In this document: piece after piece, positions 3,397 through 21,731 of the stretch
How the letters are laid out: each line of letters begins with the position of its first letter
Position numbering within the stretch: position 1 is the stretch's first letter
Source of the DNA: a virus
Taxonomy: Duplodnaviria; Heunggongvirae; Uroviricota; Caudoviricetes
Direction: 5' to 3' (one strand)
Length of the DNA stretch: 23,481 nt
Virus record (IMG/VR): IMGVR_UViG_2565956633_000002
Notes under the pieces: model-generated
The model's database searches: none
Seen by the model: only the letters and a program-made list of their open reading frames with translations
What the model was told of the DNA's origin: nothing
Translations under genes and position numbers: made by a program

Positions 3397-3462
3397 AAAT
3401 TTTGAGAGAAAAATCCCACTCCACCAGCCAAAAACTGGATTGTTTTTCATAGTTGTTTGACA

Positions 3463-3479
3463 ATTGCTCTAATAAATTA
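3463..3479 (+). promoter_or_regulatory. C1 operator (Op99-like), upstream of coi-c1
   Basis: ATTGCTCTAATAAATTA, 16/17 to consensus. Confidence 0.7.
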
Positions 3480-3717: not shown

Positions 3718-3927
3718 ATGGCTTTCATTCCACCAACCATCGACGACGTTAGACATTGCTCTAACGCTTTATCTGTAGACCCCGCCGAAACCGACGCTGC
3801 CCGCGCCATTGCTGAACACTACTCAAAGATATCCAATCAGGAGTACCGCATCACCCAAGACGACCTGGATGATCTCACTGACACAATCGAATATCTCATG
3901 GCCACTAACCAGCCAGACTCACAATAA
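3718..3927 (+). CDS. coi: Coi, C1 inactivator, 69 aa
   Basis: 69-codon ORF directly upstream of c1 with Shine-Dalgarno GTGAGG. The size and position are those of P1 coi. Confidence 0.8.
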   Translation: MAFIPPTIDDVRHCSNALSVDPAETDAARAIAEHYSKISNQEYRITQDDLDDLTDTIEYLMATNQPDSQ

Positions 3928-3928
3928 A

Positions 3929-3945
3929 TGCACTAATAAATCTAT
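3929..3945 (+). promoter_or_regulatory. weak C1-operator-like site between coi and c1
   Basis: TGCACTAATAAATCTAT, with the core CTAATAAAT conserved. A near-copy occurs at 23058-23074. Confidence 0.3.
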
Positions 3946-4037
3946 TATTTTCGTTGGATCCTTCTATAATGGTGGCCAACAACTCCCAGTGTAATCCGCT
4001 GTGAGTTGTTGGCCATGTCAATTCTGGAGGAGGATCA

Positions 4038-4889
4038 ATGATAAATTATGTCTACGGCGAACAACTGTACCAGGAGTTCGTCAGCTTCAGGGATCTCTTT
4101 CTAAAAAAAGCTGTTGCACGCGCCCAACACGTTGATGCCGCCAGCGACGGTCGTCCTGTTCGCCCGGTTGTCGTTCTGCCGTTCAAAGAAACGGACAGCA
4201 TTCAGGCTGAAATTGATAAATGGACTTTAATGGCGCGGGAACTGGAACAGTACCCAGACCTCAATATCCCAAAGACTATTTTATATCCAGTGCCTAACAT
4301 CCTTCGCGGTGTGCGTAAGGTTACGACTTATCAGACAGAAGCTGTGAACAGCGTCAACATGACCGCTGGCCGCATTATTCATCTGATTGATAAGGACATT
4401 CGCATCCAGAAAAGCGCGGGGATCAATGAGCACAGTGCGAAATACATAGAGAACCTGGAAGCAACAAAAGAGCTAATGAAGCAGTACCCGGAGGATGAAA
4501 AATTCCGTATGCGTGTACACGGCTTTAGCGAAACAATGCTGCGCGTCCACTACATTTCCAGTAGCCCTAACTACAATGATGGTAAATCAGTTAGTTACCA
4601 TGTGCCGCTGTGTGGTGTGTTTATCTGCGATGAAACTCTCCGTGATGGAATCATCATCAACGGTGAATTCGAGAAAGCAAAATTTAGCCTTTATGACTCT
4701 ATAGAACCGATCATCTGCGACCGCTGGCCGCAGGCAAAAATATATCGCCTGGCAGATATTGAAAATGTAAAAAAACAAATTGCCATCACTCGCGAAGAGA
4801 AAAAGGTCAAATCAGCCGCATCAGTTACGCGCAGCCGTAACACTAAGAAGGGGCAGCCAGTAAACGACAACCCCGAAAGCGCGCAATAA
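4038..4889 (+). CDS. c1: C1 repressor of lysis (immC), 283 aa
   Basis: Translation MINYVYGEQLYQEFVSFRDLFLKKAVARAQHVDAASDGRPVRPVVVLPFKETDSIQAEIDKW... matches P1 C1 in sequence and length. Strong Shine-Dalgarno GGAGGAGG. Confidence 0.95.
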   Translation: MINYVYGEQLYQEFVSFRDLFLKKAVARAQHVDAASDGRPVRPVVVLPFKETDSIQAEIDKWTLMARELEQYPDLNIPKTILYPVPNILRGVRKVTTYQTEAVNSVNMTAGRIIHLIDKDIRIQKSAGINEHSAKYIENLEATKELMKQYPEDEKFRMRVHGFSETMLRVHYISSSPNYNDGKSVSYHVPLCGVFICDETLRDGIIINGEFEKAKFSLYDSIEPIICDRWPQAKIYRLADIENVKKQIAITREEKKVKSAASVTRSRNTKKGQPVNDNPESAQ

Positions 4890-4892
4890 ATT

Positions 4893-4914
4893 ATGCCCGG
4901 CATCAACCGGGCAT
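4893..4914. terminator. bidirectional terminator-like hairpin between the convergent c1 and ant genes
   Basis: ATGCCCGG-CATCAA-CCGGGCAT, an 8-bp stem with A/T-rich flanks on both sides. Confidence 0.45.
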
Positions 4915-4921
4915 TCTTCCA

Positions 4922-6040
4922 TTATTCAGCTGCCACCGGTTTTAACAAGCCAGCATCGAGCAGTTTACGCGTCAACCACTGCTGGCCTTTACCCGTTAAT
5001 TGAGGCGTCAACCGTATCTGGTAGCCATCTTCATCATCCAGCACCACTTCTTTCACCGTGAAATACCCCGCGTTGATGTACTGCTGGAACGGCACATTTT
5101 TACGTCCACCGGACGCTATCAGGATGCCGTTCTCCCGTAACCAGACAAACAGCGCGTTTTGCTTAAGTCCAACAACCTTTGCAAAATTCCCAATCAGGAT
5201 CCCTTTAGCTACTGATACCCGGTCGGCAAAATCGACTTTAGGAGCGGCGGCCACCAGCTGCTGATTTAGCTGGTGGGCTTTCTGTTCCAGAAGTTGCTTT
5301 TGTTCAGCCAGTTCGGCAGCCAGGCGTAGGGCTTCAGGAAGCGTCTGGGGGATTGCGATCGGTTGCTGTTCTTTTTGTCGGAAGTAGCTGTCTTCCAGTT
5401 TTTCAAAGAATGCCCATGCCTGATCGGTTTCGAGCATTTTAGCGTGGCGGGCTGCGCCGCGTTCTGTCCAGAGGGTGAGTGAGCGAACATTGCGAGCAAT
5501 TTTTACAGAGTAGTTTAAAGCTACTCTGTGCTTCAACTCGCGCAATGATTCTCCTTCAACTTTGAAAAAGTGCTTCCCTTCAACAAAGCGTACTTTGTTC
5601 TCATGATGATTTTGGCGAATACGGATTGTTTCTGTCCCATACCCTCTAGCAAGAGTCTCGGTTGTCACTACACGCACTCCCTGCCATTCCAGAACGGGAA
5701 TTTCATCAGACTGATTCTGAACAACCACCAGCTCCGATTCCTGAACTGAAGGTGCATGAATTTTTTCTGATTTAACGTTAGTTGCTTTCATTCTGTGTGC
5801 CTCCTTGCGTGCTTCGGCTGCGACGGTTGCGTAATTCAGATGACCCTGTTCGAGCAGGTATTCGCGAATATCAGACAGCAGGATACGGTGAACCGCGTTC
5901 TTGTCCTTTCTCCGGTAAAGTTGTTTAGTGATCATGAAGTAGTTGGCTATAACACTGGGAATATCCCTGGTGCTGATACAGGCAGTGTGCTGTTCAATTG
6001 CCTCGATCATCTCTTCACGGGTGACTAATGACGTTCTCAT
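4922..6040 (-). CDS. ant: antirepressor Ant1 (372 aa) with in-frame internal start for Ant2 (ATG at 5790, 289 aa); ORF6N/Bro-N-like and KilA-C-like regions
   Basis: 372-codon ORF translationally coupled to the upstream 73-codon ORF (ATGA overlap at 6037-6040). A perfect internal Shine-Dalgarno AAGGAGG sits 8 nt before Met84. The predicted 41 kDa and 32 kDa products fit P1 Ant1/Ant2. The C-terminal region looks like a KilA-C antirepressor domain. Confidence 0.7.
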   Translation of the reverse strand: MRTSLVTREEMIEAIEQHTACISTRDIPSVIANYFMITKQLYRRKDKNAVHRILLSDIREYLLEQGHLNYATVAAEARKEAHRMKATNVKSEKIHAPSVQESELVVVQNQSDEIPVLEWQGVRVVTTETLARGYGTETIRIRQNHHENKVRFVEGKHFFKVEGESLRELKHRVALNYSVKIARNVRSLTLWTERGAARHAKMLETDQAWAFFEKLEDSYFRQKEQQPIAIPQTLPEALRLAAELAEQKQLLEQKAHQLNQQLVAAAPKVDFADRVSVAKGILIGNFAKVVGLKQNALFVWLRENGILIASGGRKNVPFQQYINAGYFTVKEVVLDDEDGYQIRLTPQLTGKGQQWLTRKLLDAGLLKPVAAE

Positions 6041-6258
6041 AGCCCCTCCTGAACAGAAGCGTTAACAGGGAGGCACCAGTAACTGAGAGAATTGCGTGAA
6101 TCAGTGGAAAAACGGGCAGAGAAAATACATGGGGCGTCAGGAAGCTGAGAGCGGGCCTCATCTTCTGTTGGTGCAATAACGAAGTGATAGTGACGTTTTT
6201 GGCAGGAGTAAAAGCGCCAGATAAATTCAGGATGAGTTGGGGTAGGGATAGTAGCCAT
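6037..6258 (-). CDS. icd: Icd-like protein, 73 aa, translationally coupled to ant
   Basis: ATG at 6258 is preceded by Shine-Dalgarno AAGGAGG then a 7-nt spacer. Product is MATIPTPTHPEFIWRFYSCQKRHYHFVIAPTEDEARSQLP... The 73-aa size and the icd-ant coupling mirror P1 immI. I do not remember the P1 Icd sequence, so the identity is structural only. Confidence 0.55.
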   Translation of the reverse strand: MATIPTPTHPEFIWRFYSCQKRHYHFVIAPTEDEARSQLPDAPCIFSARFSTDSRNSLSYWCLPVNASVQEGL

Positions 6259-6423
6259 ATTGGCAGCCTCCTTAGACGTTGGTATGTAACCACCGCAGAA
6301 GAGACCAATCTTGCTGGCGGTGGACTGTACGGAGTTGGCCTTACTGGCGTCCAAGGTAACCAGCCTACCCGAAGGTAGCCCCATACAGCCCACCATTGTA
6401 GAGGTGTGCGTGTACGCCGATAC

Positions 6424-6447
6424 AAAAAAAAGACGCGAGCGGCGTCT
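6424..6447 (-). terminator. rho-independent terminator, minus strand
   Basis: Minus RNA reads AGACGC-CGCTC-GCGTCT followed by U8 (plus-strand A-run at 6424-6431). Confidence 0.55.
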
Positions 6448-6570
6448 GTATCGCCTTAGACTTAAGCGGGAGGCCAATCCCGGCACCCGTTTTAATGAGG
6501 TGCCTGATAAGCATAAACCGAAAATGCCTCAAGGCGCAAGAGGTCAGGTTCAATGTAACATCGGTAGCTA
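6448..6570 (-). ncRNA. candidate c4-like antisense regulatory RNA (boundaries approximate)
   Basis: This is the transcribed region between a C1-operator promoter and the terminator. It contains AUUGGCCUCC, which is complementary to the icd ribosome-binding site GGAGGCUGCCAAU, and a GUCUAAGG copy also present at that site. The arrangement follows the P1 c4-icd-ant paradigm. Confidence 0.3.
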
Positions 6571-6577
6571 AAAAACA

Positions 6578-6594
6578 CAATTTATTAGAGCAAA
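6578..6594 (-). promoter_or_regulatory. C1 operator (Op51-like) at the head of the immI-like module
   Basis: Minus strand reads TTTGCTCTAATAAATTG, 15/17 to consensus. Confidence 0.65.
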
Positions 6595-6597
6595 TGT

Positions 6598-8082
6598 TCA
6601 TTCATTAAGCCATGCCAGAGCTTCATCAACCTGCGCTTCGTCTTCGACGCTAAGCACTTCATCCTGGGGAACATAATCCGCCAGCATAGCGAAACAATAT
6701 GTATCCCAATGGTCTGGTGAGTGCAGGTTGAGTTTTTTCTTCATATCCTCCTTACTCATCACCTTCCATTGACCTGCGGAGTTAATCCCTACAGGGATTT
6801 TCGACGCTTCCTCAATAGTTTCATTACCCTTATCCAGTCTCATACGACCAGATTTTACGGCCTCTGCGGCTTGAACGTTGGCATAAGCACGTTTATCAAA
6901 GTACAGGCTCTTATCTTCACGGCTATGCATCTTTTTACCCCAGCGTATACGCTGTACGGTAATACCATAATACTCGTACATCAGATCCGCTGTTGCTTTA
7001 CCCAGGCCATCGCCATCTATCGCTATGGTGATATTGGGGAATCGCTCAGGATTACATTCTGCGAAAATTTTGGCGGCAAGCTGCGTTTCTGTAACGTCTG
7101 TGTATTCCAGCATTCGATAGTTGATTACACGGCGTTTATTTCGCTGGCCGGACACCATCATGATATTGATAACTGACTTATCCCGTCCCGTACCACCAGC
7201 AACGTCCACACATGCAAGCCAGCCCCATCCTTTGGCAATCTTAACTTTCCGCCGCGTTGCACGTTCAACCTCATCACGTCCAAGAAGGAAGCCGTCCTGT
7301 GATTTAGGGAATAGGCCGCGCACCTTAATCATGTACATAGGGTTATCACGCCCGCCGTACTCCGCCAGCTTCATTTTGATAAATTCTGGCGTTACCAGCG
7401 GTGATTCCTCACTGTTAAGCGTGATCGCCGTATAAACGCCATCTGGGTTACCAGGACGCTTGGCCAGTTTATGGTGAGTATCGTAGAAATAGCCGCTTGG
7501 GCGTGTAGGCTGTGACAGTAATAAGATGCGGTTATCCTGTCCGGTAAGAGCACCGGTGATGATACCGAAAGCTCTATCACTGACACCGGAGGCTTCATCG
7601 ATAATATACAGAAGATGATCTGCGTGTTCACCGGCGAGAGCTTCTTCACTTCCCAGACGAAAGCCCTTCGGTACTACAGTCCATACACCTTTACCAGTAA
7701 CCTCATAGAAAGCGGTTTCTGTCAGAACAAAATAATCAGCAAGCCATGGAAAACGGCTGGTGGCAGTAGCCCAGTTTATCTTGATGTACTTGAATATACC
7801 GGTCATTACCTGCTGAATTTTGTTCGCAACGATAATGGCACGGGCACCTGGATACATGATTATGAACAACATGATCATGATAGAAGTCATGTCTGATTTC
7901 CCGGTACCGTGACCAGACGAAACAGATGTCTTGCTACCCTGTTCCTGCACAGACTCAATAATCAGATCCTGCTGCCAGGTAGGTGTTTTGCCGAACAAAA
8001 CATCAGCGGCAGCAATCCAGTCATAACGATATAGCGCCACCAGCTCGCGCCAACGTGGATCCGTTACGCAACTTCTGGCCAT
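6598..8082 (-). CDS. pacB: PacB, pacase / terminase large subunit, 494 aa
   Basis: Terminase-type ATPase with Walker A GHGTGKS and a C-terminal nuclease region. The 494-aa length and the one-base overlap with the upstream gene (TAATG) match P1 pacB. Confidence 0.9.
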
Positions 8083-9275
8083 TAATCATCATCCCCGTAT
8101 AGCTTGCGGGTAACTTCTTCGTCTTCCTCCTCGTCTTCGTCCAGGTCTTGTTCCAGCCATGGGTCGTTTGATACACCTTCAGTATCAACATCTCCATAAC
8201 CGCCTGTATCAACGATATCGGCGATTTCTTCCCTACGCTGCTCAATCCACAATGCGGCATCGGCGCGGCGGTTGGCGGCCCGTTCTCGCGCAACTTTGTC
8301 CAGATCTTCAAGAGAAGGGCCACCGACGGCTGTTTGCCTTTCCTCATCATCGGTATTGGTCTTAGGAGCACGCAGATCGGCTTTGATTTGCTCCAGCATC
8401 AGGGGCGGTACTTTCCCTCCATGCGCCTCGATGAATTCAGCTGCCTCCAGCACTGACCAGTTGTTTTCACGCTTTCGTTCGTATGCCAGCTTAACAATGC
8501 CAGCTTGCCCCATAGACAAAGCGTGCTTTTCCGCCTCCCGGCTTTCTTTTCGATAGTTATTCCGGATGCTGTAAATGGTGTTGATCAGGCTGCTTATCTG
8601 CGCGGAACAGCTGTTTAGCATGCTCGCGATACGGTATTCAGGCGGAGTTCCTTCATCATCGTCTTTTTGCTGATCGCGCATTTCCTGAACCAAGCGAATA
8701 CACGTATCCCTGGCGTTCTCCAGCATAAGGAGATGAGAGAGAGACTTTTCCAGAAGAGTGGTTTCCAGAACATCAGCCCCGGACCGACGCAACATAGCGC
8801 GCGCGGCCTTCCGCGCTTCAACGTTATCTATCAGGTAATCGCCAGCTTCGAATTCAAAGCGTTCACCATCATCATCCAGGGTGTCGCGTTCCAGGCGATC
8901 ACGTAAGGTCCGGTGGGCGCGGGTGATCACGTCATGATCATCAGAACGATCATTTATGCGCTTATTCTGGCGCTTCGCGTTCTCGACTGCGGCACTGACA
9001 ACAGCATTAACTCTTTGTTTTTCAGCCATTTCAGCCACAATGTGATCACCTGCACGTTGATCATTAGCGTGATCAATGATCATGCTTTTTAGTGGTTTTC
9101 TGACAGGCTTATTTGGCTTACGGCTGTCCGCTGTTCCGGTGTCTTCTTTGAATGCACGGAGATAACGACGTGCGGTGTTTGGGTTGAGATTAAACTCGGC
9201 GGCATATTGTGCGATGGTGTAACCACCATCTCGCGCCAGGCGAGCAAAATTCTTCTTGTGATCGTCCCAGGTCAC
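8082..9275 (-). CDS. pacA: PacA, pacase small subunit, 397 aa (GTG start)
   Basis: GTG start with Shine-Dalgarno AAGGAAG. The product has an N-terminal helix-turn-helix-like region and an acidic tail, and the pac site lies inside the ORF as in P1. Confidence 0.88.
8896..9083. other. pac packaging site: two clusters of TGATCA/GATC hexamers flanking the presumed cut region
   Basis: TGATCA at 9043, 9058, 9070 and 9078 on one side. On the other side, GATC-containing hexamers at 8896, 8924, 8935 and 8948. This is the known 4 + 3 Dam-site architecture of P1 pac. Confidence 0.65.
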
Positions 9276-9361
9276 TTATGCTTCCTTTCGTATAAAACTC
9301 TTTTTGACGCGAGGGTAACGAAAGTCACATGTCAAAAGGCCCGGAACGGGCAAGCAATCAA

Positions 9362-9814
9362 TCAGATACGTGCGGATGTGGCATTACCGTAATGACGGTG
9401 CTGACGGACCACCTTATTGAAAAGTTGACGCGCCATCACCCAAGGCTGGTGCTCCCGGCGTTCCTTTTCGTCCTGCGTCATATAGAGTTCGTTCTGGAGT
9501 TTTTCATCAAACCGGCGCGGAGCGCGGCTGCGGCGAAAGAATTCAGGATTCAGAGAGTGGATCTGAAATCTACGTGGGCGTGTACTGTCATCAATCAAAA
9601 CAGACGAATACTTAGACACAGCGATAGCCTTTAAGCGCAGATAAACATCGCGCTTATCGACATCCAGATGCGGGTATTCCTTTTCAAGAATTGCTGCGAG
9701 TTCTTTCGCTGATAGAAGAGATTTAGTGCGGATCATGTAATCCGCAATCTCGTACGATGTTATTCGTGAGTGATTTATTTCCATGAAGTGGCGTCCCTGC
9801 CAGTTAAGTAACAT
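9362..9814 (-). CDS. hypothetical protein, 150 aa, in the position of lpa (late promoter activator) upstream of pacA
   Basis: ATG at 9814 with Shine-Dalgarno AGGTGA, and tandem C1 operators immediately upstream. The protein is not recognised; the assignment is positional only. Confidence 0.5.
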   Translation of the reverse strand: MLLNWQGRHFMEINHSRITSYEIADYMIRTKSLLSAKELAAILEKEYPHLDVDKRDVYLRLKAIAVSKYSSVLIDDSTRPRRFQIHSLNPEFFRRSRAPRRFDEKLQNELYMTQDEKERREHQPWVMARQLFNKVVRQHRHYGNATSARI

Positions 9815-9871
9815 CCTGTCACCTACTGATTAGCCCATGTCAACTAATCAACGTGGAATATAATACCCTCG

Positions 9872-9901
9872 ATTAAAGAAATAGCAATACATTAGAGCAA
9901 T
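9872..9901 (-). promoter_or_regulatory. tandem C1 operators (Op88-like)
   Basis: Minus strand reads ATTGCTCTAATGTATTGCTATTTCTTTAAT. Confidence 0.6.
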
Positions 9902-9902
9902 T

Positions 9903-10946
9903 TTATCTAACGCTCGACGAGTGACTTGTGATAGCGCCGACTCCAAGCGCGTAATCAAAGAACAATCGTTGATGCATCGCCAGCCTACCGTGCGTCTTCT
10001 CCCAATTATCGCGGTCACGCTCAATATCACGCTGGCATGACTGGCACAGAGGAATAGCATAAATGTCATGCGCGCATAATCGACTATGACGAACGATATA
10101 AGGCGTAATGTGAGCGCCAGCTCCCGCAGCTCCACAGCCACAGCATGGACGGGAAGCCACAAAGTCCATGTACTCGGGCAATTTTAGCGATTGAAGTTTT
10201 GGTATTTTGAAATGCGCCATACCTGGGTCGGAGTCAACATCCACAGGGCATACTTTTGCACGCATCGGCGCGGCGCGTTCTTCCATCATCTGAACATATG
10301 CTGTAGCGCGATCGTCATACGGGCGAATATCCGCCTCTTTCAGAGGTCCGCTATCCTGCGGAGTAGCCTTCATCTTATTTATTGATATGCGGCAGACTTC
10401 TTCCGGCATCAGGTGCATCATGTTGCGCATGAAAGCCCACCAGCACAGTTCCTGAATACTTAAATCATGGCCATCTGAAAGCCCCATTTCCTGACGGGCG
10501 ACATCCAGTATCCAGTTAACGCGATTATTATGCAGCGTTTCTTTCAGCTCATTAAAACCACGCATCCGGTAATGGTTATCGTGATGCCAGCACAGCAACA
10601 CCGCGCTATTGTCTCGTTCAGTGTGGACAATATGGTTGTCACACCAACTACGATCTGCGGCCTGGCATCGCCCCTCTTTCCTGCGCAACCACGCCACCAG
10701 CGCGTCAATTCCACCAATACGACGAAACAGCTCATCGCTGTTAAAAAACGGCTGCAACGCCTCATTTGTTGCCATGGTTTGCTCGGAAACAACGAGGCCG
10801 TCGTCCATGTGCTCGATTAACTCACGCGGCACCGGCTCCATAATAAATTTACGGCCAGCCTCCACCAGCTTTCTGACCTCCTGATCCACTTTGAATGTGG
10901 CGACGCCAAGCTCTTTTTGTACAAAGGGAGTAATTACGGCTTTCAC
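9903..10946 (-). CDS. hypothetical Cys/His-rich protein, 347 aa (P1 pdcB position)
   Basis: GTG start with Shine-Dalgarno AAGGTG. The product has several CxxC and HxxH clusters ([20 protein letters not shown]) and sits two genes downstream of doc. Confidence 0.65.
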
Positions 10947-10973
10947 ATCACACCTTTAATCACTGATTGGGCT

Positions 10974-11153
10974 TTATCTGCTGCCCGGCATTCTCTGTTT
11001 AAGCACAACCATTTCCTGACGGCATAACACAGCAATAGCGGTCCTGACACCAACTTGCTTACCAACCAGGTAATGCTTTACCTCGCGGCGACTCACGCCA
11101 TCAAGAAGCATCTTTAACGCTTCACGGGACAACTTGTTGTATTTACGTGCCAT
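10974..11153 (-). CDS. small basic protein, 59 aa (P1 pdcA position)
   Basis: ATG at 11153, 4 bp after the doc stop. Product MARKYNKLSREALKMLLDGVSRREVKHYL... looks like a possible helix-turn-helix protein. Confidence 0.5.
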   Translation of the reverse strand: MARKYNKLSREALKMLLDGVSRREVKHYLVGKQVGVRTAIAVLCRQEMVVLKQRMPGSR

Positions 11154-11157
11154 TAAT

Positions 11158-11538
11158 CTACTCCGCAGAACCATACAATCTACGTAACGTGTCGGCGACA
11201 GAAGATACAGATATCTCGCCAGTCGCAGCGCCTACAGTAAGGTCTGCCAGTTCAGGTGAATCAAATACCTGCACCCCGTTACGGCGTAGAAATAACAGCG
11301 CACTGTTTAGCGCGGTACGCTTATTGGCATCATTGAATATATGCCCTCTCGCTGTAGCCACCAGGTAGGTGGCGGAGACTTCGAAAAGGTCGGTGATCTC
11401 TTCGTAGGCAACTCTGGCCTGAACTCTCCCGATAATGGCCTCTGCCCTACCCGGATCTGACATTCCCGGCAGGCCGCCGTAGCGGTTTATATTCGCATCA
11501 TGAAGCGCAATAAGTTCTTCCGGTGATATATGCCTCAT
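11158..11538 (-). CDS. doc: Doc toxin (Fic/Doc family), 126 aa
   Basis: Translation [75 protein letters not shown]... is essentially P1 Doc. Confidence 0.95.
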
Positions 11539-11759
11539 TATCGGTTAACCAGTTCCTTGTTGGTGGAGTCCAGGGTGTCAAACAGGGATGCAAATTCAGC
11601 ATCCAGCGCCGCTTTTTTGTAGGCTTCGAAAGTAGCCTTGCTGACAATTACTGCTGGCTCACGGCCTCTGCGGGTGATTTCAACCTCTTCCCCGGCCTCA
11701 ACATTGTTGAGCACTTCAGAAAGTTTGCCGCGCGCGGTACGGAAGTTAATGGATTGCAT
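11538..11759 (-). CDS. phd: Phd antitoxin, 73 aa
   Basis: Translation [73 protein letters not shown] is P1 Phd. Its stop overlaps the doc start (TAATG). Confidence 0.95.
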
Positions 11760-11935
11760 AAACACCTCATGTACTCGTTATGTGTACGCAATCATAAACC
11801 TCACAGGCATAAAGCACCAGCACTTTGCGGCTTAACAAACCTCTAGGCAGGTCATTCGTAGCCTAATGTCCGAACTGCTAAAGCATCCAAGTTGCTGTAG
11901 AATCACCGCCAATTACATAAGCCTGAAATAAGTGG

Positions 11936-13498
11936 ATGAAAATGACAAGTATTCAACAACGTGCAGAGCTTCATCGTCAAATCTGGCAAATTGCTAACGA
12001 TGTCAGGGGTTCGGTCGATGGATGGGATTTTAAGCAATACGTTCTGGGCGCACTTTTCTACCGTTTTATCAGCGAAAATTTTTCCAGCTATATTGAAGCC
12101 GGTGATGACAGCATCTGTTATGCGAAACTGGATGACAGCGTAATTACTGATGACATTAAAGACGATGCCATCAAAACCAAAGGCTACTTCATCTACCCAA
12201 GTCAGCTTTTCTGCAACGTAGCTGCGAAAGCAAATACCAATGACAGACTGAACGCAGATTTAAACAGCATCTTCGTTGCTATCGAAAGCTCTGCTTACGG
12301 TTACCCTTCAGAAGCTGACATCAAAGGTTTGTTTGCTGATTTCGATACCACCAGTAACCGCCTGGGTAACACCGTTAAAGATAAAAATGCCCGCCTGGCT
12401 GCGGTTCTGAAAGGGGTTGAAGGGTTAAAACTTGGTGACTTCAACGAACATCAGATTGACCTGTTCGGTGATGCCTATGAGTTCCTGATTTCTAACTATG
12501 CGGCAAATGCCGGTAAGTCAGGCGGTGAGTTCTTTACACCGCAGCACGTCTCTAAGCTGATTGCACAACTGGCAATGCACGGCCAGACCCACGTTAACAA
12601 AATCTACGACCCGGCAGCAGGTTCCGGTTCGCTGTTGTTGCAGGCTAAAAAACAGTTTGATGACCATATCATCGAAGAAGGCTTTTTTGGTCAGGAGATC
12701 AACCATACGACCTATAACCTGGCGCGTATGAACATGTTTTTGCACAACATCAACTACGACAAGTTTGATATCAAGCTGGGTAATACACTGACTGAGCCGC
12801 ACTTCAGAGATGAAAAACCGTTTGATGCCATCGTTTCTAACCCGCCGTATTCGGTGAAATGGATTGGCAGCGATGACCCGACGCTGATTAACGATGAACG
12901 TTTTGCCCCGGCTGGCGTTCTGGCCCCCAAATCCAAAGCTGACTTTGCGTTTGTATTACATGCGCTGAACTATCTTTCTGCCAAAGGTCGTGCTGCGATT
13001 GTCTGCTTCCCGGGCATTTTTTACCGTGGCGGCGCGGAGCAGAAAATCCGTCAGTATCTGGTTGACAATAACTATGTCGAAACCGTGATTTCACTGGCAC
13101 CGAACCTGTTCTTTGGCACCACCATTGCCGTAAATATTCTGGTGCTGTCTAAACATAAAACGGATACCAAAGTTCAGTTTATTGACGCCAGCGAACTGTT
13201 CAAAAAAGAGACTAACAACAACATCCTGACCGATGCCCATATCGAAAAAATTATGCAGGTATTTTCCAGCAAGGAAGATGTTGCCCATCTGGCAAAATCT
13301 GTCGCGTTTGAGGCCGTTGTCGCGAATGACTATAACCTGTCAGTGAGCAGCTATGTAGAAGTGAAAGATAACCGCGAAACTATCGATATTGCTGAGCTAA
13401 ATGCTGAGCTGAAAACCACGGTCAGCAAAATCGACCAGTTGCGTAAAGATATTGATGCGATTGTGGCTGAAATTGAAGGCTGCGAGGTGCAGAAATGA
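11936..13498 (+). CDS. hsdM: Type I restriction-modification methyltransferase subunit HsdM, Type IC (EcoR124 family), 520 aa
   Basis: N6-adenine methyltransferase motifs are present: [10 protein letters not shown] (AdoMet binding) and VSNPPYS (motif IV). The 520-aa length and N-terminus [25 protein letters not shown] fit EcoR124-type HsdM. Confidence 0.93.
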
Positions 13499-14706
13499 GC
13501 GAGTTGAGTTATCTGGAAAAATTGCTGGATGGGGTTGAAGTTGAGTGGTTGCCATTGGGGGAAATAACCAAATATGAACAGCCAACAAAGTATTTGGTAA
13601 AAGCAAAAGATTATCACGACACATATACCATACCGGTTCTTACTGCCGGAAAAACATTTATTCTTGGATACACAAATGAGACTCATGGTATTTATCAGGC
13701 ATCAAAGGCACCTGTAATAATTTTTGATGATTTCACCACCGCTAATAAATGGGTGGATTTTGACTTTAAGGCAAAATCATCGGCCATGAAAATGGTTACA
13801 TCATGTGATGATAATAAAACCTTACTGAAATATGTTTACTATTGGCTCAATACATTACCAAGTGAATTCGCAGAGGGAGACCATAAACGCCAATGGATTA
13901 GTAATTATTCTCAAAAAAAAATCCCAATCCCCTGCCCGGATAATCCGGAAAAATCCCTTGCCATCCAGTCTGAAATCGTTCGGATTCTGGATAAATTTAC
14001 TGCACTTACCGCTGAGCTTACCGCTGAGCTTAACATGCGTAAAAAACAGTACAACTATTATCGCGACCAGTTGTTGAGTTTTAAAGAGGGTGAGGTTGAG
14101 TGGAAGACTTTGGAGGAGGTGCTAGTAGATAAATTTTGGATTATGCCCGCAACTCCGAAGTTTGATGACAATGGTGAAATTCCATATGTCACTTCAAAGA
14201 ATATTAGTGGTGGGAACATCGATTTTGAAAGAGTTAAGCATATTTCCCGGGACGATTTTTTGAGCATCTCCAAAAATAGACCGATCTTGAAAGGTGACTT
14301 TCTTATAAGCATGATTGGTACTATTGGTGAGATTGCTCGAGTAAAATGTCTCGATCCTGATTTTTACGGTCAAAACATGTACCTAATCAGGTTGAATGAG
14401 GAATTACTTCACCCTAGATATTTTCTGCATTTCTTCGACTCACCAAGAATGAAATTTTACTTTAAGTCAGTAAAAAACAATTCAGGGCAAGGTTATCTTA
14501 AAGCAAATAACATTGATGGTTTATCTATTCCTTTACCATCGATTGATGAGCAACAAAAAATTGCCTTTATCCTCGATAAGTTCGACACCCTGACCAACTC
14601 CATCACCGAAGGTCTCCCGCGTGAAATCGAGTTGCGCCAGAAACAATACGAGTACTACCGTGATTTACTGTTCAGTTTCCCGAAACCTGAAACTGTCAGT
14701 AATTAA
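13495..14706 (+). CDS. hsdS: Type I specificity subunit HsdS, Type IC, 403 aa, two target-recognition domains
   Basis: ATGA overlap with hsdM. The central conserved region carries the TAEL-TAEL repeat typical of Type IC HsdS, and there are duplicated conserved motifs (QKQYEYYRD / KKQYNYYRD). Confidence 0.9.
14005..14028 (+). repeat. tandem 12-bp repeat (CTTACCGCTGAG x2) encoding TAEL-TAEL in the hsdS central region
   Basis: Exact tandem duplication read directly from the sequence. In the EcoR124I / EcoR124II paradigm, two versus three copies of this repeat change the spacer length of the recognition site. Confidence 0.85.
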
Positions 14707-14828
14707 TTGACCATTGCTACCGACCGGGCCACCTTAACACCCGGTCAGTATATAGGCTATTTTTTTACACGCTGGAAGTCACCATTAACACCCTTCCGGC
14801 CCTTGCCAGACGGCACAAAGGATGCGCT

Positions 14829-17800
14829 ATGACTCATCAGACACACACCATTGCTGAATCCAATAACTTTATCGTTCTTGATAAGTACATCAAAGCTGAG
14901 CAAACAGGCGACAGCTATCAGAGTGAATCGGACCTGGAACGGGAACTGATTCAGGACCTGCGAAATCAGGGCTATGAATTTATACCCGTAAAATCACAGT
15001 CGGCGATGCTGGCCAACGTTCGGGAACAGCTTCAGAACCTCAATGGTGTGGTGTTTAATGACAGCGAATGGCGGCGTTTCACGGAGCAGTATCTGGACAA
15101 CCCGAGTGATGGCATTCTGGATAAGACCCGTAAAATCCATATCGACTATATTTGCGACTTTATTTTTGATGACGAGCGTCTTGAGAACATCTATTTGATA
15201 GATAAAAAGAATCTCATGCGCAATAAGGTGCAGATTATCCAGCAGTTTGAACAGACGGGTTCTCATGCTAACCGTTATGACGTCACGATCCTGGTTAATG
15301 GTTTACCGCTGGTGCAAATCGAACTAAAAAAACGCGGGGTGGCGATTCGTGAGGCTTTCAACCAGATACATCGTTACAGTAAAGAGAGTTTTAACAGCGA
15401 AAATTCCCTGTTTAAGTATCTGCAACTGTTTGTCATTTCTAACGGCACCGATACCCGTTATTTTGCCAACACGACAAAGCGCGATAAAAACAGTTTTGAC
15501 TTCACCATGAATTGGGCGAAATCAGACAACACGCTGATTAAAGACCTCAAAGACTTTACCGCTACCTTTTTCCAGAAACATACTCTGCTGAATGTTCTGG
15601 TGAACTACAGCGTTTTTGACAGTAGTCAGACGCTACTGGTGATGCGACCGTACCAGATTGCCGCCACCGAACGAATCTTATGGAAAATCAACAGCTCCTA
15701 TAAAGCGAAAAACTGGTCTAATCCCGAAAGCGGTGGCTTTATCTGGCACACTACCGGTTCTGGTAAAACACTGACCAGCTTTAAAGCCGCGCGTCTGGCA
15801 ACAGAACTGGACTTTATTGATAAAGTCTTCTTCGTGGTCGACAGGAAAGACCTCGATTACCAGACCATGAAGGAATACCAGCGTTTTTCGCCAGACAGCG
15901 TCAACGGCTCGGAAAATACCGCAGGTCTTAAACGAAATCTGGATAAGGACGATAACAAAATTATCGTCACCACTATTCAGAAACTTAATAACCTGATGAA
16001 AGCAGAAAGCGACCTGCCTGTATACAATCAGCAAGTGGTGTTTATATTTGATGAATGCCACCGCAGCCAGTTTGGAGAAGCGCAGAAAAACCTGAAGAAG
16101 AAATTCAAACGCTATTATCAGTTTGGTTTTACCGGCACACCTATTTTCCCGGAAAACGCTTTAGGCTCAGAAACGACCGCCAGCGTATTTGGCCGTGAAT
16201 TGCATTCGTATGTGATTACCGATGCGATTCGAGATGAAAAAGTGCTTAAATTCAAGGTGGACTACAACGATGTGCGGCCACAGTTTAAGTCTTTAGAGAC
16301 AGAAACCGACGAGAAAAAACTGAGTGCGGCTGAAAATCAGCAGGCGTTTCTTCATCCCATGCGTATACAGGAAATTACGCAATATATTCTGAATAACTTC
16401 CGCCAGAAGACCCACCGTACTTTCCCAGGTTCCAAAGGCTTTAATGCCATGCTGGCAGTGAGTAGCGTGGATGCCGCGAAAGCCTATTACGCGACGTTTA
16501 AACGGTTACAAGAGGAAGCAGCTAATAAATCGGCTACCTATAAACCGCTGCGTGTTGCGACAATCTTCTCCTTTGCCGCCAATGAAGAACAAAATGCCAT
16601 TGGTGAAATTTCCGATGAAACTTTTGATACCAGCGCAATGGACAGCAGTGCTAAAGAGTTTCTGGACGCTGCAATTCGTGAATATAACAGCCATTTTAAA
16701 ACTAACTTTAGCACCGACAGTAACGGTTTTCAGAACTACTATCGTGATTTAGCCCAGCGGGTTAAAAATCAGGATATCGATCTGCTAATTGTCGTGGGGA
16801 TGTTTTTAACCGGCTTCGATGCTCCAACATTGAACACGCTATTCGTCGATAAAAACTTGCGTTTTCACGGCCTGATGCAGGCATTTTCCCGCACCAACCG
16901 TATTTATGATGCAACTAAAACCTTCGGTAATATCGTCACTTTCCGGGATCTGGAACGCTCAACTATTGATGCCATAACGCTGTTTGGTGACAAAAACACC
17001 AAAAATGTGGTGTTAGAAAAGAGTTATACAGAGTATATGGAAGGCTTTACTGATGCTGCTACAGGTGAAGCTAAACGCGGCTTCATGACAGTAGTTTCAG
17101 AACTGGAACAACGGTTCCCTGACCCTGCCAGTATTGAAAGTGAAAAAGAGAAGAAAGACTTCGTTAAACTGTTTGGCGAATACCTGCGTGCCGAGAACAT
17201 CCTGCAAAACTATGATGAATTTGCCACGCTAAAAGCCCTGCAACAAATCGATCTTAGCGATCCTGTTGCGGTAGAAAAATTCAAAGCAGAACATTATGTG
17301 GATGATGAAAAGTTCGCTGAATTGCAAACAATTCGTCTCCCTGCTGATCGCAAGATTCAGGATTATCGTTCTGCCTATAACGATATTCGCGACTGGCAGC
17401 GCCGTGAGAAAGAAGCTGAGAAAAAAGAGAAATCAACCACTGACTGGGATGACGTAGTTTTTGAGGTCGATTTGCTGAAGTCTCAGGAAATAAACCTGGA
17501 TTATATCCTTGGACTGATTTTCGAACACAACAGACAAAATAAAGGCAAGGGCGAAATGATCGAAGAGGTCAAACGCTTAATTCGTTCAAGCCTGGGGAAC
17601 CGAGCGAAAGAGGGCCTGGTGGTCGATTTTATTCAGCAAACGAACCTGGATGATTTACCAGATAAAGCCAGTATCATTGAGGCATTCTTTACGTTTGCTC
17701 AACGCGAACAGCAACGTGAAGCAGAAGCATTGATAAAAGAAGAAAATCTCAATGAAGAAGCAGCAAAACGCTATATTCGCACGTCTTTAAAACGCGAATA

Positions 17801-17945
17801 CGCCACCGAAAATGGCACAGAATTAAACGAAACATTACCAAAACTTAGTCCATTGAATCCGCAATATAAAACGAAAAAACAGGCAGTTTTCCAGAAAATC
17901 GTCTCGTTTATTGAGAAGTTTAAAGGCGTAGGCGGAAAAATATAG
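14829..17945 (+). CDS. hsdR: Type I restriction endonuclease subunit HsdR, Type IC, 1038 aa
   Basis: Superfamily 2 helicase motifs are present (Walker A TGSGKT, DEAH-box FDECHRSQ). The 1038-aa length matches EcoR124I HsdR as I recall it. Shine-Dalgarno AAGGA. Confidence 0.93.
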
Positions 17946-17962
17946 CCCAATTCGTGTTTTTC

Positions 17963-17990
17963 TTGCGGGTTCTTAATTAAACCCGCAAGA
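17963..17990. repeat. perfect 9-bp inverted repeat CTTGCGGGT / ACCCGCAAG around a TTAATTAA core, just after the hsdR stop
   Basis: Read directly from the sequence. There is no U-run after the stem in either transcript orientation, so it is not a classical terminator. It is a possible protein-binding site or island boundary. Confidence 0.5.
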
Positions 17991-18024
17991 GACCGTGGGG
18001 TTCCAAATGGCTAATATACTCCCC

Positions 18025-18111
18025 TTACCCATGCGCGACGATGCCGCCAAAAGTGATAGAGAACAGCCAGAAATAGATCGCGGTCATAATGATTTTGAAT
18101 ACCGTGTTCAT
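18025..18111 (-). CDS. small hydrophobic peptide, 28 aa, predicted single transmembrane helix
   Basis: ATG at 18111 is preceded by Shine-Dalgarno CAGGAG with a 7-nt spacer. Product is MNTVFKIIMTAIYFWLFSITFGGIVAHG. A C1-type operator lies about 85 bp upstream. It is convergent with hsdR. Confidence 0.4.
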   Translation of the reverse strand: MNTVFKIIMTAIYFWLFSITFGGIVAHG

Positions 18112-18140
18112 ATCTTCAGCTCCTGTGATTGATTGGATAT

Positions 18141-18172
18141 ATGCCGCGCCCCTTGCGGCATGTTTTTATTTT
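18141..18172 (+). terminator. rho-independent terminator, plus strand
   Basis: ATGCCGC-GCCCCTT-GCGGCAT followed by GTTTTTATTTT. Confidence 0.55.
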
Positions 18173-18195
18173 CACTTTCTCTGTTTTAAAAAACA

Positions 18196-18212
18196 AGATT
18201 TATTAGAGCAGC
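18196..18212 (-). promoter_or_regulatory. C1 operator
   Basis: Minus strand reads CTGCTCTAATAAATCTT, 14/17 to consensus. Confidence 0.55.
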
Positions 18213-18718
18213 TATTGTTGATGGAGAAGCACGTTTTCATACTCCCTGACCATTAACGTAAGTACGCCGTGACTCCTGAAAACACGCGCCACTTCAATCT
18301 TATCTTCCAGCGCGAACGCAATTTTACTTAGACCAATTTTCTTAAGGAGATCAATCTTTGCTGGACCGTCATTTCTGTCATCGGTGGCAGGACGCATAGA
18401 TAGCAAAGGCTCAGCCCCGTTTGTTACGTACTTCCGCAGCCAGGCTCGTGTTTTATCCCTTGCGATCTCACAGCGCCCGGTTACAAACCAGACCGTGTAA
18501 ACGTTAAATAACTGGCGCACCATATCAATAACTGGAGTGATGGGAGTATCGGTGTCACAGGCAAGGTTAAACTCGTTCCAGTGCTCTGTTAATGCACCTT
18601 TGCCAGGTGGTGGAAGTAAATGCAACCTGTCTTCCGTTGCCTCTGATATCGTCCCATCAATATCTACTATGACGATGTACGGACGTTCCTGGTGTGCGTG
18701 TTTATTGAAAATACTCAA
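18212..18718 (-). CDS. HAD-superfamily phosphatase-like protein, 168 aa (TTG start)
   Basis: HAD motif I DxDGT is present near the N-terminus (IVIVDIDGTISE), and there is a later acidic motif. Shine-Dalgarno GGAGGG precedes the TTG start. Confidence 0.65.
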   Translation of the reverse strand: MSIFNKHAHQERPYIVIVDIDGTISEATEDRLHLLPPPGKGALTEHWNEFNLACDTDTPITPVIDMVRQLFNVYTVWFVTGRCEIARDKTRAWLRKYVTNGAEPLLSMRPATDDRNDGPAKIDLLKKIGLSKIAFALEDKIEVARVFRSHGVLTLMVREYENVLLHQQ

Positions 18719-18737
18719 ATGCCCTCCTCATTGGACG

Positions 18738-18770
18738 AAAAAAAATGCTGGTAGGCGCACTCAACCAGCA
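18738..18770 (-). terminator. rho-independent terminator, minus strand, between the 420-codon gene and the HAD-like gene
   Basis: Minus RNA reads UGCUGGU, an 11-nt loop, ACCAGCA, then U8, followed immediately by the Shine-Dalgarno of the next gene. Confidence 0.55.
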
Positions 18771-18791
18771 TTAAAAGTGACACTGTAACTA

Positions 18792-20054
18792 TCAGCGAAC
18801 GTAAATAGTGCCGCCGTTCTCTTTTTCCCATGCATCGCTACGTGCATAGCAAACATCGAGAAGTCTTCTTGCCGCTGTTTCCTCTAAACCCAATTCGACA
18901 ACCAACTGCTCATGACGGCGGGTAACCACATCAAACAGGGTATGCAGCCCTTTAGCTGCCAGATCATCAATAAATTCCGGTTCGAACGGCAGCTCTGCCT
19001 CTGCCAACATAACCTCTTGCGCCCACTCAACTCGACGGACCAGTTCCGGGCGGCGGCTTTCCATCTCTTTACAGATCAATTCATGGAAGAACTCTACCCA
19101 ACCTTCCGGCTGGAACTCGCGGAAAATGGCCAACGGCTGGAAGTTTGGCATCAACCATTCGTTGATCCGGATATCAATGGCATAGCCCATGTCGCAGCAG
19201 AACTGATAAGCAAAGTCCAGCTTAGAAACGATATAAGGACGCTCGTTATTGAACTCTTTAGGCGATGAGATCCCATAAGCCAGGAGGCGCGGGAAGAAGG
19301 AGATTTGCCCTAACGTCGGATGAAGTTTGCTTGCAGGGAAACGGCGCTCAGTAATGCCATACATTTCCTTCTTGAGCGTCGCAAATTTGGCATTCTCATT
19401 AACCAGCGCGGTAACCTCTGCTTTTTTATTAGCAAATGCCACGCGCGCCTCGCTTGCATCTTTAATAGTTTTTTTGAGCTGTTGGTTAAGGTCGGCGACC
19501 TGCTTACGCAGTTCCTGTCGCTCGCTTTTAGCTTTGTTATAGCGTTTCTCAAGGTTAAAAGGATCAAGTTTCATGATCTCTTTATATTGAGATTTTAGCG
19601 TTGAAATCTGTGAGTTCCGCAGTTCAACCATCGCGGTCATTTCATTGAGTTTTGTTTCCAGCTCAATGCTTATACGTTCGGCATTATCAGCACGCTGGTT
19701 GGCGTCATGCGTCGCATCGTCGATCGCGTCCTGTTGCTGGCGTTTCAAATGTTCAATTTGCAGCTGAAGCTCTTCAATTTCTTTACCCTTCAGACCAAGA
19801 TCCAACTGCATATTTTCAGCTGCATCTACCAGGGAGTTATGGCTATCAGCTTCTGCGTTATAAACATCAATAAGCTGTGCGTGAAGCATCTCCGCTGACT
19901 GAACCGCATTATCAAAAAAACGCGCTGTGAGGTCATCACAACTAACGCGGCGTTGCGCGGCCCGGATGTTCTGGATAATGGCCGGGATACCGGCATTCAG
20001 GACGTCAGGGATAGATACATTTTCGATTGATTGGTTTTGTGCTGAAGTGCTCAT
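18792..20054 (-). CDS. hypothetical protein, 420 aa, with a long N-terminal coiled-coil region and an unrecognised C-terminal domain
   Basis: Long ORF with a heptad-rich, charged N-terminal half (LKGKEIEELQLQIEHLKRQQQDAIDD...) and a C-terminal globular part. Its start lies 1 nt after the stop of the upstream 72-codon ORF (TGAAATG). Confidence 0.7.
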   Translation of the reverse strand: MSTSAQNQSIENVSIPDVLNAGIPAIIQNIRAAQRRVSCDDLTARFFDNAVQSAEMLHAQLIDVYNAEADSHNSLVDAAENMQLDLGLKGKEIEELQLQIEHLKRQQQDAIDDATHDANQRADNAERISIELETKLNEMTAMVELRNSQISTLKSQYKEIMKLDPFNLEKRYNKAKSERQELRKQVADLNQQLKKTIKDASEARVAFANKKAEVTALVNENAKFATLKKEMYGITERRFPASKLHPTLGQISFFPRLLAYGISSPKEFNNERPYIVSKLDFAYQFCCDMGYAIDIRINEWLMPNFQPLAIFREFQPEGWVEFFHELICKEMESRRPELVRRVEWAQEVMLAEAELPFEPEFIDDLAAKGLHTLFDVVTRRHEQLVVELGLEETAARRLLDVCYARSDAWEKENGGTIYVR

Positions 20055-20055
20055 T

Positions 20056-20274
20056 TCAAAGTTCCGTATTAGCTTGTGCTTCGGTCATTTTTCCTAAGTA
20101 TGAAGGTGGAAGGACTACGCAATTTGTATCCAGTCCCTCACCTATGGCAGCCTGTAAAATTCTGGCTAAGGTGAGTCTCTTGTTGCGATACCTGGTGATG
20201 ACATGCCTGATACCGCCGGTCGGCGTAACAAAGGCGATCAGCCAGTAGTGATATTTCCGTCGGAATGGCCACAT
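20056..20274 (-). CDS. hypothetical basic protein, 72 aa, first gene of a two-gene operon
   Basis: ATG at 20274 with Shine-Dalgarno AAGGTG and a 4-nt spacer. A C1 operator lies 15 bp upstream. Product is MWPFRRKYHYWLIAFVTPTGGIRHVITRYRNKRL... Confidence 0.5.
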   Translation of the reverse strand: MWPFRRKYHYWLIAFVTPTGGIRHVITRYRNKRLTLARILQAAIGEGLDTNCVVLPPSYLGKMTEAQANTEL

Positions 20275-20288
20275 AGTGCACCTTATAG

Positions 20289-20354
20289 ATTGCTCTAATA
20301 AAAAACGTGATGAGTGTACATCACGTTTTAAAAATATGGAATTATTAGAGCAAT
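20289..20354. promoter_or_regulatory. pair of divergently oriented C1 operators flanking a hairpin
   Basis: ATTGCTCTAATAAAAAA on the plus strand at 20289-20305. Hairpin CGTGATG-AGTGTA-CATCACG at 20306-20325, with an A-run before and a T-run after. Minus-strand ATTGCTCTAATAATTCC at 20338-20354. Confidence 0.6.
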
Positions 20355-20355
20355 A

Positions 20356-21057
20356 TTATTCTGATTCTCGCTCAAAAAATGAGCTGATAAGGGGAAGCCA
20401 ATCCTCTGACACTTCGCGAGGTCGCGGTTTGCCGTGGAAAAAGATTATTCGGCAGTCTTTTGGTAATGCCCCATTCCCCCTGGAGTAACGCGCGCTCGCA
20501 TATTTCGAACCAGGTTCCACAACATCGGCCTTGTAACTTACAAACCATCCCGGATACAGATCCTGAAATGCTGGTGTATCATCACCCATAACCTTCCGCA
20601 AAAACCCCTGCTCACCCCAGCATTCAGTAGTAACACAACGAGCAATCCAACCTTCCGGATCTTGCCAGAATGCACTCCAGATATGCGCTTTTACACTATT
20701 TGGTATCCACAGGGCACCGCTGCCACGATATTGTGGATGGTAAAAATCCCTAAGCATGGTGAAGCTGGTTGGTGGATTCTCTAGGATTGGGCGTATATCA
20801 CCGGCAATAACCGTGTCCAAATCCAGATAGAACAGATCATCGGTTATATCCGGTCGGAACAACTCGATTTTCGCCCACCAGCCACGGCACTTTTGCCACT
20901 GGTTGATCAATGGGACAACTTTGACGCCAGGTACATGTAAACGCTTCAGGTCTGTCAGGCAAATAATTTCATAGCCTTTTGGCAGTTGATTAACCAGCCA
21001 CTGCACATCGGAAGCGTTATAGTCACCACCAGAGCGAAGAACTAAAGCAATCTTCAT
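20356..21057 (-). CDS. hypothetical protein, 233 aa, with a DxD motif (possible nucleotide-sugar transferase fold)
   Basis: ATGA start/stop overlap with the upstream phosphatase gene. Contains a DLDTV motif. The family is not recognised. Confidence 0.65.
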
Positions 21058-21731
21058 GCTGCACCATCACCTTTCACTTTCATCAATGTCAGGTTTCCGC
21101 AAAATACGGCACCTGTGTCGATATAATGCTGATTCCAGAATGTCTTCGGGCTTTTCACCGGAGTGTGACCAAAGATAAAACGATCTGCGCCAGAAATTTC
21201 GCCACCAATATCATCCATCGAATCACTGATACGCTCGCGCGCCCAGACAACGTTGAAAAGCGGCACCTCCTTACCGAATTGATATTCATTATCCGGATAG
21301 TCGGCATGGGCTATAACGATAGTTTCTTGCCCGGTGTTCAACTCAATGATATAGGGCAGTCGTCTTACCAACTCCACCAGCGCCCTGGCTAATATTTCCT
21401 GATCAGCGTCCAGCATGAAGAACCATTGACCGCCATTCATTAGCCAGTTATTCACGTTGCCATCTGGACTTAACGCATCAATCATCAGCCGCTCATGGTT
21501 CCCCATCACTGCCCTGAACCAGGGCATCTGCAATAGTTCCAGACATTCGACATTTTCAGTACCGCGATCGATAAGGTCGCCGACCGATATCAGTAAATCC
21601 TGCGCCGGGTCAAAATCCACACGATGGAGTTCGGACATCAGTCTGGTGTAGCAACCATGCAGATCACCAACAACCCAGACATTCCTGTATTTGGTACCGT
21701 CGATACGGTGATAAATTGTGGGTGCCATCAT
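21054..21731 (-). CDS. Ser/Thr protein phosphatase, lambda-PPase family (P1 ppp-like), about 225 aa
   Basis: All three metallophosphoesterase signatures are present (VVGDLHG, GDLIDRG, GNHE), and the product is strongly similar throughout to lambda PPase as I remember it ([19 protein letters not shown]...[11 protein letters not shown]). I chose the ATG at 21731 because it forms an ATGA overlap with the upstream gene. Confidence 0.85.

Follow-up and report, generated by a model that had tools for sequence, protein, structure and literature searches.

Type I restriction-modification (R-M) systems fall into families that are defined by sequence relatedness and by subunit complementation, and the classical members of the Type IC family, to which EcoR124I, EcoDXXI and EcoprrI belong, were reportedly described on conjugative plasmids. 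A connection between Type IC loci and bacteriophage P1 is written into the GenBank record of P1 itself (AF234172). Positions 87969-88647 of that record are marked as 98% identical to conjugative-plasmid sequence upstream of the EcoDXXI hsd locus, and positions 84263-84482 and 84399-84482 are marked as homologous to sequence downstream of EcoDXXI hsd and of the R124/3 hsdR gene, respectively. The work behind these marks is that of Tyndall and coworkers (Tyndall et al. 1997, PMID 9157244; cited in PMC12707154), which, to judge from its title, dealt with the flanking of Type IC hsd loci by P1 DNA. The block from pmgT to humD that lies between the marked segments is variable region 8 of the P1-like phage-plasmids and is highly variable (PMC9603915); the string 'hsd' has no occurrence in that paper, which therefore does not name hsd as an occupant of region 8. 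The subject of the present analysis is a Type IC hsdM-hsdS-hsdR operon in a stretch of 23,481 nucleotides from a tailed-phage genome (IMG/VR record IMGVR_UViG_2565956633_000002), referred to here as the window. The segment at 11837-18020 is almost certainly a plasmid- or phage-borne Type IC R-M cassette of the EcoR124I/EcoDXXI/EcoprrI family that sits in the usual site between phd-doc and pap, where it replaces the genes from humD to pmgT. The arrangement is real but ordinary, having been known since 1997 and being widespread.

The three genes are carried on one strand in the Type IC order hsdM-hsdS-hsdR, with an overlap of 4 bp between hsdM and hsdS and a gap of 122 bp between hsdS and hsdR. 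PADLOC calls the three open reading frames (ORFs) a Type I methyltransferase, a specificity subunit and a restriction endonuclease. HsdM is identical to the EcoR124I M chain 7bst_D at 513 of 520 positions (98.7%), and the motifs DPAAGSGS and NPPY are intact in the alignment of the two. HsdR shows 14 differences from 2w00_A over the approximately 968 residues displayed (about 98.5% identity), and the same alignment shows the nuclease motif D...ExK and the motor motifs GSGKT and DECH to be intact. All three ORFs are of full length and equal in length to the crystallised EcoR124I proteins. A preliminary description of this DNA, which was made from the letters alone, had proposed a complete Type IC operon of the EcoR124 family, and this is borne out by the Pfam domains (Table 1), the PADLOC calls and the approximately 98.5-98.7% identity of HsdM and HsdR to EcoR124I.

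The limits of the cassette are given by BLAST alignment to P1, a comparison that the preliminary description had suggested for locating the breakpoints. Window positions 8499-11835 align to the lpa-to-phd side of P1 and positions 18021-21500 to the pap-to-ppp side. On the left, P1 homology stops at window position 11835, which corresponds to position 87970 of the P1 record, and the breakpoint lies between 11836 and 11837. On the right, homology is back at window position 18021, corresponding to position 84482 of the P1 record, and the breakpoint lies between 18020 and 18021. These breaks, at 87969/70 and 84482 in the P1 record, are where the homology marked in that record ends. Between them P1 has 3,487 bp with humD, lxr, hot, upfO, upfN, upfM, pmgV, pmgU and pmgT, whereas the window has 6,184 bp, so that the event was a replacement and not a simple insertion. 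Neither the P1 nor the P7 reference has hsd genes here, and in P7 the interval is occupied by other genes (about 8 kb). The statement in the preliminary description that P1 carries humD, lxr and hot at this place, and no Type I system, thus agrees with the P1 record, and P7 is likewise without hsd. Its picture of an insertion in inverse orientation into a P1-like backbone holds in part: P1 genes on the minus strand do lie on both sides of the plus-strand hsd genes, but a pure insertion does not fit with the replacement of humD to pmgT.

Both breaks fall at gene edges, which makes the exchange gene-precise. The left break is one base beyond the humD stop codon, which persists at the junction, and the right break separates the stop codon of a small ORF of 28 amino acids from the site at which pmgT would start. 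Comparison of the cassette ends and of the junctions found no direct or inverted repeats linking the ends and no target duplication, and transposition or site-specific insertion was rejected on these grounds. The notion that 18021 is a breakpoint shared by all P1-like phages was rejected as well, since P1 and P7 are still alike past this position and only the window diverges. Two unusual sequences that were said to bound the hsd genes, a divergent intergenic region and a perfect inverted repeat, do exist, but neither is an end of the element. The divergent region, which is the 176-bp gap between phd and hsdM at 11760-11935, does not qualify because it consists of the P1 Pphd region followed by the hsdM leader. 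That leader has been found in another setting, as in the plasmid record CP122909 it is preceded by hot and not by phd.

HsdS is the subunit in which the locus departs from EcoR124I. It has the architecture of a Type IC specificity subunit, with two recognition domains, a central region bearing TAEL (Thr-Ala-Glu-Leu) repeats and a C-terminal conserved region; the limits of these sub-regions (Table 1) are the points at which other alleles lose or regain DNA similarity. Residues 1-204 match EcoR124I HsdS (7bst_A) at 203 of 204 positions. Residues from about 205 to 359, by contrast, are unrelated to EcoR124I and align weakly, and similarity is back in the C-terminal conserved region. The number of TAEL repeats sets the spacing of the two half-sites, there being two repeats in EcoR124I and three in EcoR124II, EcoDXXI and EcoprrI (PMC3874165). 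Chain 7bst_A carries the PDB label EcoR124II yet has two TAEL repeats, and it is taken here as the EcoR124I state because of that number. Judged by these alignments, HsdS of the window is a natural hybrid, in which the N-terminal domain of EcoR124I and two TAEL repeats are followed by a C-terminal domain of another type. Because the C-terminal recognition domain differs, the locus is a specificity variant and not EcoR124I itself. Under the rules established for the family (PMC3874165), the N-terminal domain would recognize the half-site GAA, and with two repeats the methylated adenines would be separated by 7 bp. The expected target has the form GAA-N(about 6-7)-X, which differs from the GAAN6RTCG recognized by EcoR124I.

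The hsdS allele is uncommon and mildly new as a combination, yet it is already in the databases, and its product is the same or nearly the same as WP_023157127.1. DNA of the C-terminal domain is present in 5 plasmid records and DNA of the N-terminal domain in 40, and the E. coli plasmid NZ_LT883139 is 99.0% identical over a 7-kb region and has the same hsdS allele. DNA of the EcoR124I-type N-terminal domain occurs at two places in each of NZ_CP086387, NZ_CP099352 and NZ_CP061751, which may have duplicated or symmetric HsdS alleles.

The locus as a whole is common. At least 80% of the region 11700-18250 is held by 585 of 5,426 complete E. coli genomes, or about a tenth. Among plasmid records, 715 have an intact left junction, taken as 150 bp to each side of the break, and 262 an intact right junction; many more end at window position 18104, which matches the 84-bp homology of R124/3. 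Two Punavirus phages, vB_EcoM-673R5 (ON470615) and phi456 (OR339795), have the same hsdM and hsdR at the same site with different HsdS recognition domains. In phi456 (3514-5951), hsdS is interrupted by a gene for an IS5-family DDE transposase that is annotated as 'putative baseplate hub protein'. In vB_EcoM-673R5 (3441-9392), the methyltransferase is annotated in two pieces, together with HsdR2, a hypothetical protein and HsdR1, which suggests frameshifts or sequencing errors in the record. In the IncY plasmid NZ_CP122909, phd is separated from the same cassette end by humD and hot, lxr being absent (1937-2924). This version of the locus is either an intermediate or a recombinant, and since it keeps humD and hot, the left side has been remodelled more than once. 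The Klebsiella phage vB_KpnS_p4727 (PQ492289) has hsdM-hsdS-hsdR at 82.7% identity (4119-10052) without P1 flanks, so that the operon is found in another phage-plasmid setting as well. Chromosome records NZ_LR134222 (NCTC11129; 4605307-4611855), NZ_CP007392 and NZ_CP007393 (ST2747) have the identical phd-hsdMSR-pap arrangement with the same hsdS allele at 98.5-99.0% identity, which may reflect either integration of a P1-like element or an artefact of assembly. The view of the operon as defence cargo at a variable hotspot beside an addiction module, which the preliminary description put forward, is supported by the position of the cassette next to phd-doc in a published variable region (PMC9603915). 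The observation is not a new one, given that the same junctions are already in the P1 GenBank annotation.

The frequency of the junctions in plasmids and genomes would also be expected if hsd were ancestral backbone of this P1-like branch and the reference P1 and P7 had done the replacing. The flanks are 97-98% identical to P1, so the direction of the exchange is unreadable from one window. Several features of the locus nevertheless make an ancestral hsd very improbable. The cassette is lower in G+C than its flanks (43.3% versus 48.1%), a comparison that the preliminary description had also suggested, and the two HsdS recognition domains are at 35-36%. The orientation of the cassette is opposite to that of all its neighbours, and its presence breaks up a C1-controlled operon, of which the promoter, the operator and the first small ORF are stranded at 18021-18212, just as the humD stop codon is left at the left junction. 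Moreover, the hsd genes of a Klebsiella phage-plasmid (83% identity) are not flanked by P1 DNA, and most P1-like phage records lack the operon. The lower G+C together with the stranded remains of the pmgT operon indicates that hsd is the incoming DNA. Alternatively, the window could be part of a conjugative or other plasmid that captured a P1 fragment along with hsd, as did R124 and the EcoDXXI plasmid, and 397 of the plasmid records that match the locus are indeed typed as conjugative. Such an origin is improbable, though a little less so, as colinearity with P1 holds over the entire 23.5 kb on either side of the cassette, the right flank does not stop at 18104 as in the R124-type truncation, and among full-length matches the best are non-mobilizable IncY plasmids of 93-97 kb, which is the size and replicon type of P1-like prophages. 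That the operon is an inactive relic is the least credible of these alternatives and is given hardly any weight. Related loci are often damaged, as in phi456 with its split hsdS and vB_EcoM-673R5 with hsdM and hsdR annotated in fragments, and insertion sequences have entered the locus in other plasmids. In the window, however, there are three full-length frames of the lengths of the crystallised proteins, and every catalytic motif inspected is intact.

Some observations tell against a functional Type IC cassette in a P1-like phage-plasmid, even though that reading is preferred. A window of 23.5 kb is by itself no proof of a complete, inducible phage. A search with HsdS residues 197-365 against 5.8 billion proteins returned no named or characterised relative; its matches were unnamed, mostly half-size S subunits at no more than 71% identity, plus two partial copies of the same allele. 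As the C-terminal domain is without a characterised relative, the second half-site is not assignable. A scan for the sigma-70 consensus upstream of hsdM gave no match of at least 9 out of 12 positions, and for this reason the hsdM promoter is a presumed one.

The enzyme mechanism, the promoters, expression in the lysogen and the target sequence are inferred for this locus, and the following scheme would account for its role. By analogy with EcoR124I, HsdS and two HsdM subunits would form a methyltransferase that methylates one adenine per strand of the bipartite target, and addition of HsdR would produce a translocase, driven by ATP, that cuts incoming DNA lacking the methylation at a long distance from the site. 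The promoter-like site in the hsdS-hsdR spacer is presumed from its match to the consensus to be a separate hsdR promoter. In lysogeny, hsdM-hsdS and hsdR would each be transcribed from their own promoters, independently of the C1-repressed neighbouring genes. The operon is expected to be on in the lysogen because it has its own leader and the promoter-like site between hsdS and hsdR, and because it is oriented away from the C1-repressed operons. Expression would protect the lysogen from foreign phages and plasmids, while the DNA of the element itself would be modified, as would probably the DNA of its progeny. Homologous recombination in the P1-derived flanks would allow the cassette to spread, and recombination in the conserved parts of hsdS could generate new specificities.

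The perfect inverted repeat downstream of hsdR is real and conserved. It has perfect 10-bp arms (17963-17972 and 17981-17990), which become 11 bp with the flanking T/A pair, and a loop of 8 nt. The predicted fold has an energy of -27.2 kcal/mol (z = -3.9), and by the analyst's own estimate chance alone would produce about 0.1 repeats of this kind in 23 kb. The repeat is identical in four other hsd-bearing loci, namely L002 (vB_EcoM-673R5), L003, L004 (NZ_CP122909) and L006 (phi456). It was rejected as a boundary of the cassette since it is internal to it. It was rejected as a canonical terminator because no U-tract follows the stem on either strand; a T-run precedes the stem on the plus strand and an A-run follows it on the minus strand, the reverse of what a terminator requires in either direction. 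The stop for hsdR transcripts is likely the hairpin with a T-run in the P1 DNA at 18139-18163.

That hairpin belongs to the leader of the replaced pmgT operon, which is retained between the right break and pap. In P1, the 28-amino-acid ORF is located between the C1-controlled PpmgT promoter and pmgT, and in the window it is the sole surviving gene of that operon. P1, P7 and four hsd-bearing loci all have the ORF intact, and AF234172 carries no annotation for it. The preliminary description had placed a C1-operator-controlled gene to the right of hsd, but the operator in question served the replaced pmgT operon and not pap. Among seven aligned loci, three substitutions at 18190-18212 are private to the window. 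They affect Op88/OpmgT, whose end reads GCT instead of ATT, and the -35 boxes of the two pmgT promoters that are annotated, and may reflect decay of a promoter that is left without an operon to drive. The stranded PpmgT (approximately 18166-18212) faces the 3' end of hsdR, and the strand that it would transcribe lacks a canonical terminator. If the promoter were used, induction of the prophage would release PpmgT from C1 repression and yield antisense RNA, which would lead to less restriction during lytic growth. Such a use is disfavoured because the operator and both -35 boxes carry the private substitutions. It is a slim prospect that the locus holds an HsdS combination specifying an experimentally unmapped Type IC target, antisense control of hsdR from the stranded PpmgT, or both.

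Outside the cassette the window is a P1 backbone. It is colinear with P1 through mat, ref, c8, cre, lox, c1, pacBA, lpa, pdcB, doc, phd, pap, pmgS, pmgR, pmgQ and ppp, and is 97-98% identical to P1 except in three regions, which are the hsd cassette, an insert at 4889-6595 and pacA/B (85%). Nine C1-operator-like sites were found where 0.14 would be expected by chance, and with the colinear backbone genes these place the element among the P1-like phage-plasmids (Punavirus). Beyond doc, the left flank continues on the minus strand with pdcB, lpa and pacA/B. The start of phd is taken as the ATG given in Table 1, whereas the ORF lister extends the frame to a GTG at 11765.

Two further departures from P1 lie to the left of the cassette. 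The 1.7-kb block at 4889-6595, which P1 lacks, separates c1 from pacB, genes that are 25 bp apart in P1. On the minus strand it has genes for an Ash-family protein (6037-6486) and for an antirepressor-like protein of the ORF6N/KilAC kind (4922-6040). There is also an ORF of 78 amino acids, and a C1-operator-like site, TTTGCTCTAATAAATTG, is located at its upstream edge (6578-6594). The block looks like a second cargo module, possibly with a C1-controlled antirepressor. Identity to P1 is no more than 85% in pacB and most of pacA (6596-8804), against 97-99% in the adjoining segments; this drop points to a mosaic packaging module.

Table 1. Features of the hsd cassette and of its P1-derived surroundings, in window coordinates
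Feature	Position	Strand	Remarks
doc	11158-11538	-	Toxin of the P1 addiction module; Pfam Fic/DOC; about 98% identical to P1 doc
phd	11538-11759	-	Antitoxin, 73 aa from ATG at 11759; Pfam PhdYeFM_antitox; colinear with P1 phd
P1-derived half of divergent gap	11760-11836		Pphd promoter region and humD stop codon
hsd 5' leader	11837-11935	+	Presumed hsdM-hsdS promoter region; no counterpart in P1, common to other hsd-bearing loci
hsdM	11936-13498	+	520 aa, m6A methyltransferase subunit; Pfam N6_Mtase (2.4e-121), HsdM_N
hsdS	13495-14706	+	403 aa, specificity subunit; Pfam Methylase_S in two stretches
hsdS N-terminal recognition domain	13549-13917	+	
hsdS central conserved region	13918-14114	+	
TAEL repeat	14008-14031	+	ACCGCTGAGCTT, 12 bp, two tandem copies; Thr-Ala-Glu-Leu x2
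hsdS C-terminal recognition domain	14115-14571	+	
hsdS C-terminal conserved region	14572-14706	+	
hsdS-hsdR spacer	14707-14828	+	Promoter-like TTAACA-18-TATTTT at 14734-14763 (consensus scan)
hsdR	14829-17945	+	1038 aa, translocase/endonuclease; Pfam HSDR_N, SWI2_SNF2, T1R_D3-like, EcoR124_C (PF12008; 1.8e-71)
Inverted repeat/hairpin	17962-17991		17 nt after hsdR stop codon, 30 bp inside the cassette
Retained P1 leader of replaced pmgT operon	18021-18211	-	Small ORF, hairpin, PpmgT region and C1 operator
Small ORF	18111-18025	-	MNTVFKIIMTAIYFWLFSITFGGIVAHG; 28 aa, hydrophobic, AGGAG ribosome-binding site
Intrinsic-terminator-like hairpin with T-run	18139-18163	+	In P1 DNA
C1-operator-like site Op88/OpmgT	18196-18212		Downstream of pap; controls pmgT in P1
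pap	18212-18718	-	Pfam HAD_PNKP; colinear with P1 pap
pmgS	18792-20054	-	Right flank; pmgR, pmgQ and ppp lie beyond

The locus is a tidy example of a defence system that has an addiction module as its neighbour, in a phage-plasmid region that is variable and prone to recombination, and one in which spread would proceed through flanking homology rather than transposition and specificity would change by swaps of HsdS recognition domains. Its practical value is in annotation, as the element can be described as a P1-like phage-plasmid with an EcoR124-family system and a predicted half-site GAA. As a discovery it has low weight, Type IC hsd genes in P1 DNA next to phd-doc having been known since 1997.

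Among the described systems, EcoprrI has as its defining feature the prrC gene for an anticodon nuclease, which is located between hsdS and hsdR. The hsdS-hsdR gap of the window contains no ORF and hence no prrC-like gene, so that the locus is not of the EcoprrI type. The EcoDXXI and EcoprrI hsd loci have the same breakpoints relative to P1 as the window (87969 and 84482), with phd-doc upstream and extended P1 DNA downstream, but they have other HsdS recognition domains and three TAEL repeats instead of two. EcoR124I of plasmid R124 (PDB 2w00 and 7bst-7btr) has the same gene order, hsdM-hsdS-hsdR, and the P1-derived sequence 3' of its hsdR begins at the same base as in the window. The two systems share the N-terminal recognition domain of HsdS, whereas the C-terminal recognition domain is unrelated to that of EcoR124I with its target GAAN6RTCG. 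In R124/3, finally, the right P1 flank is truncated at 84 bp, whereas in the window it goes on through pap, pmgS and beyond.

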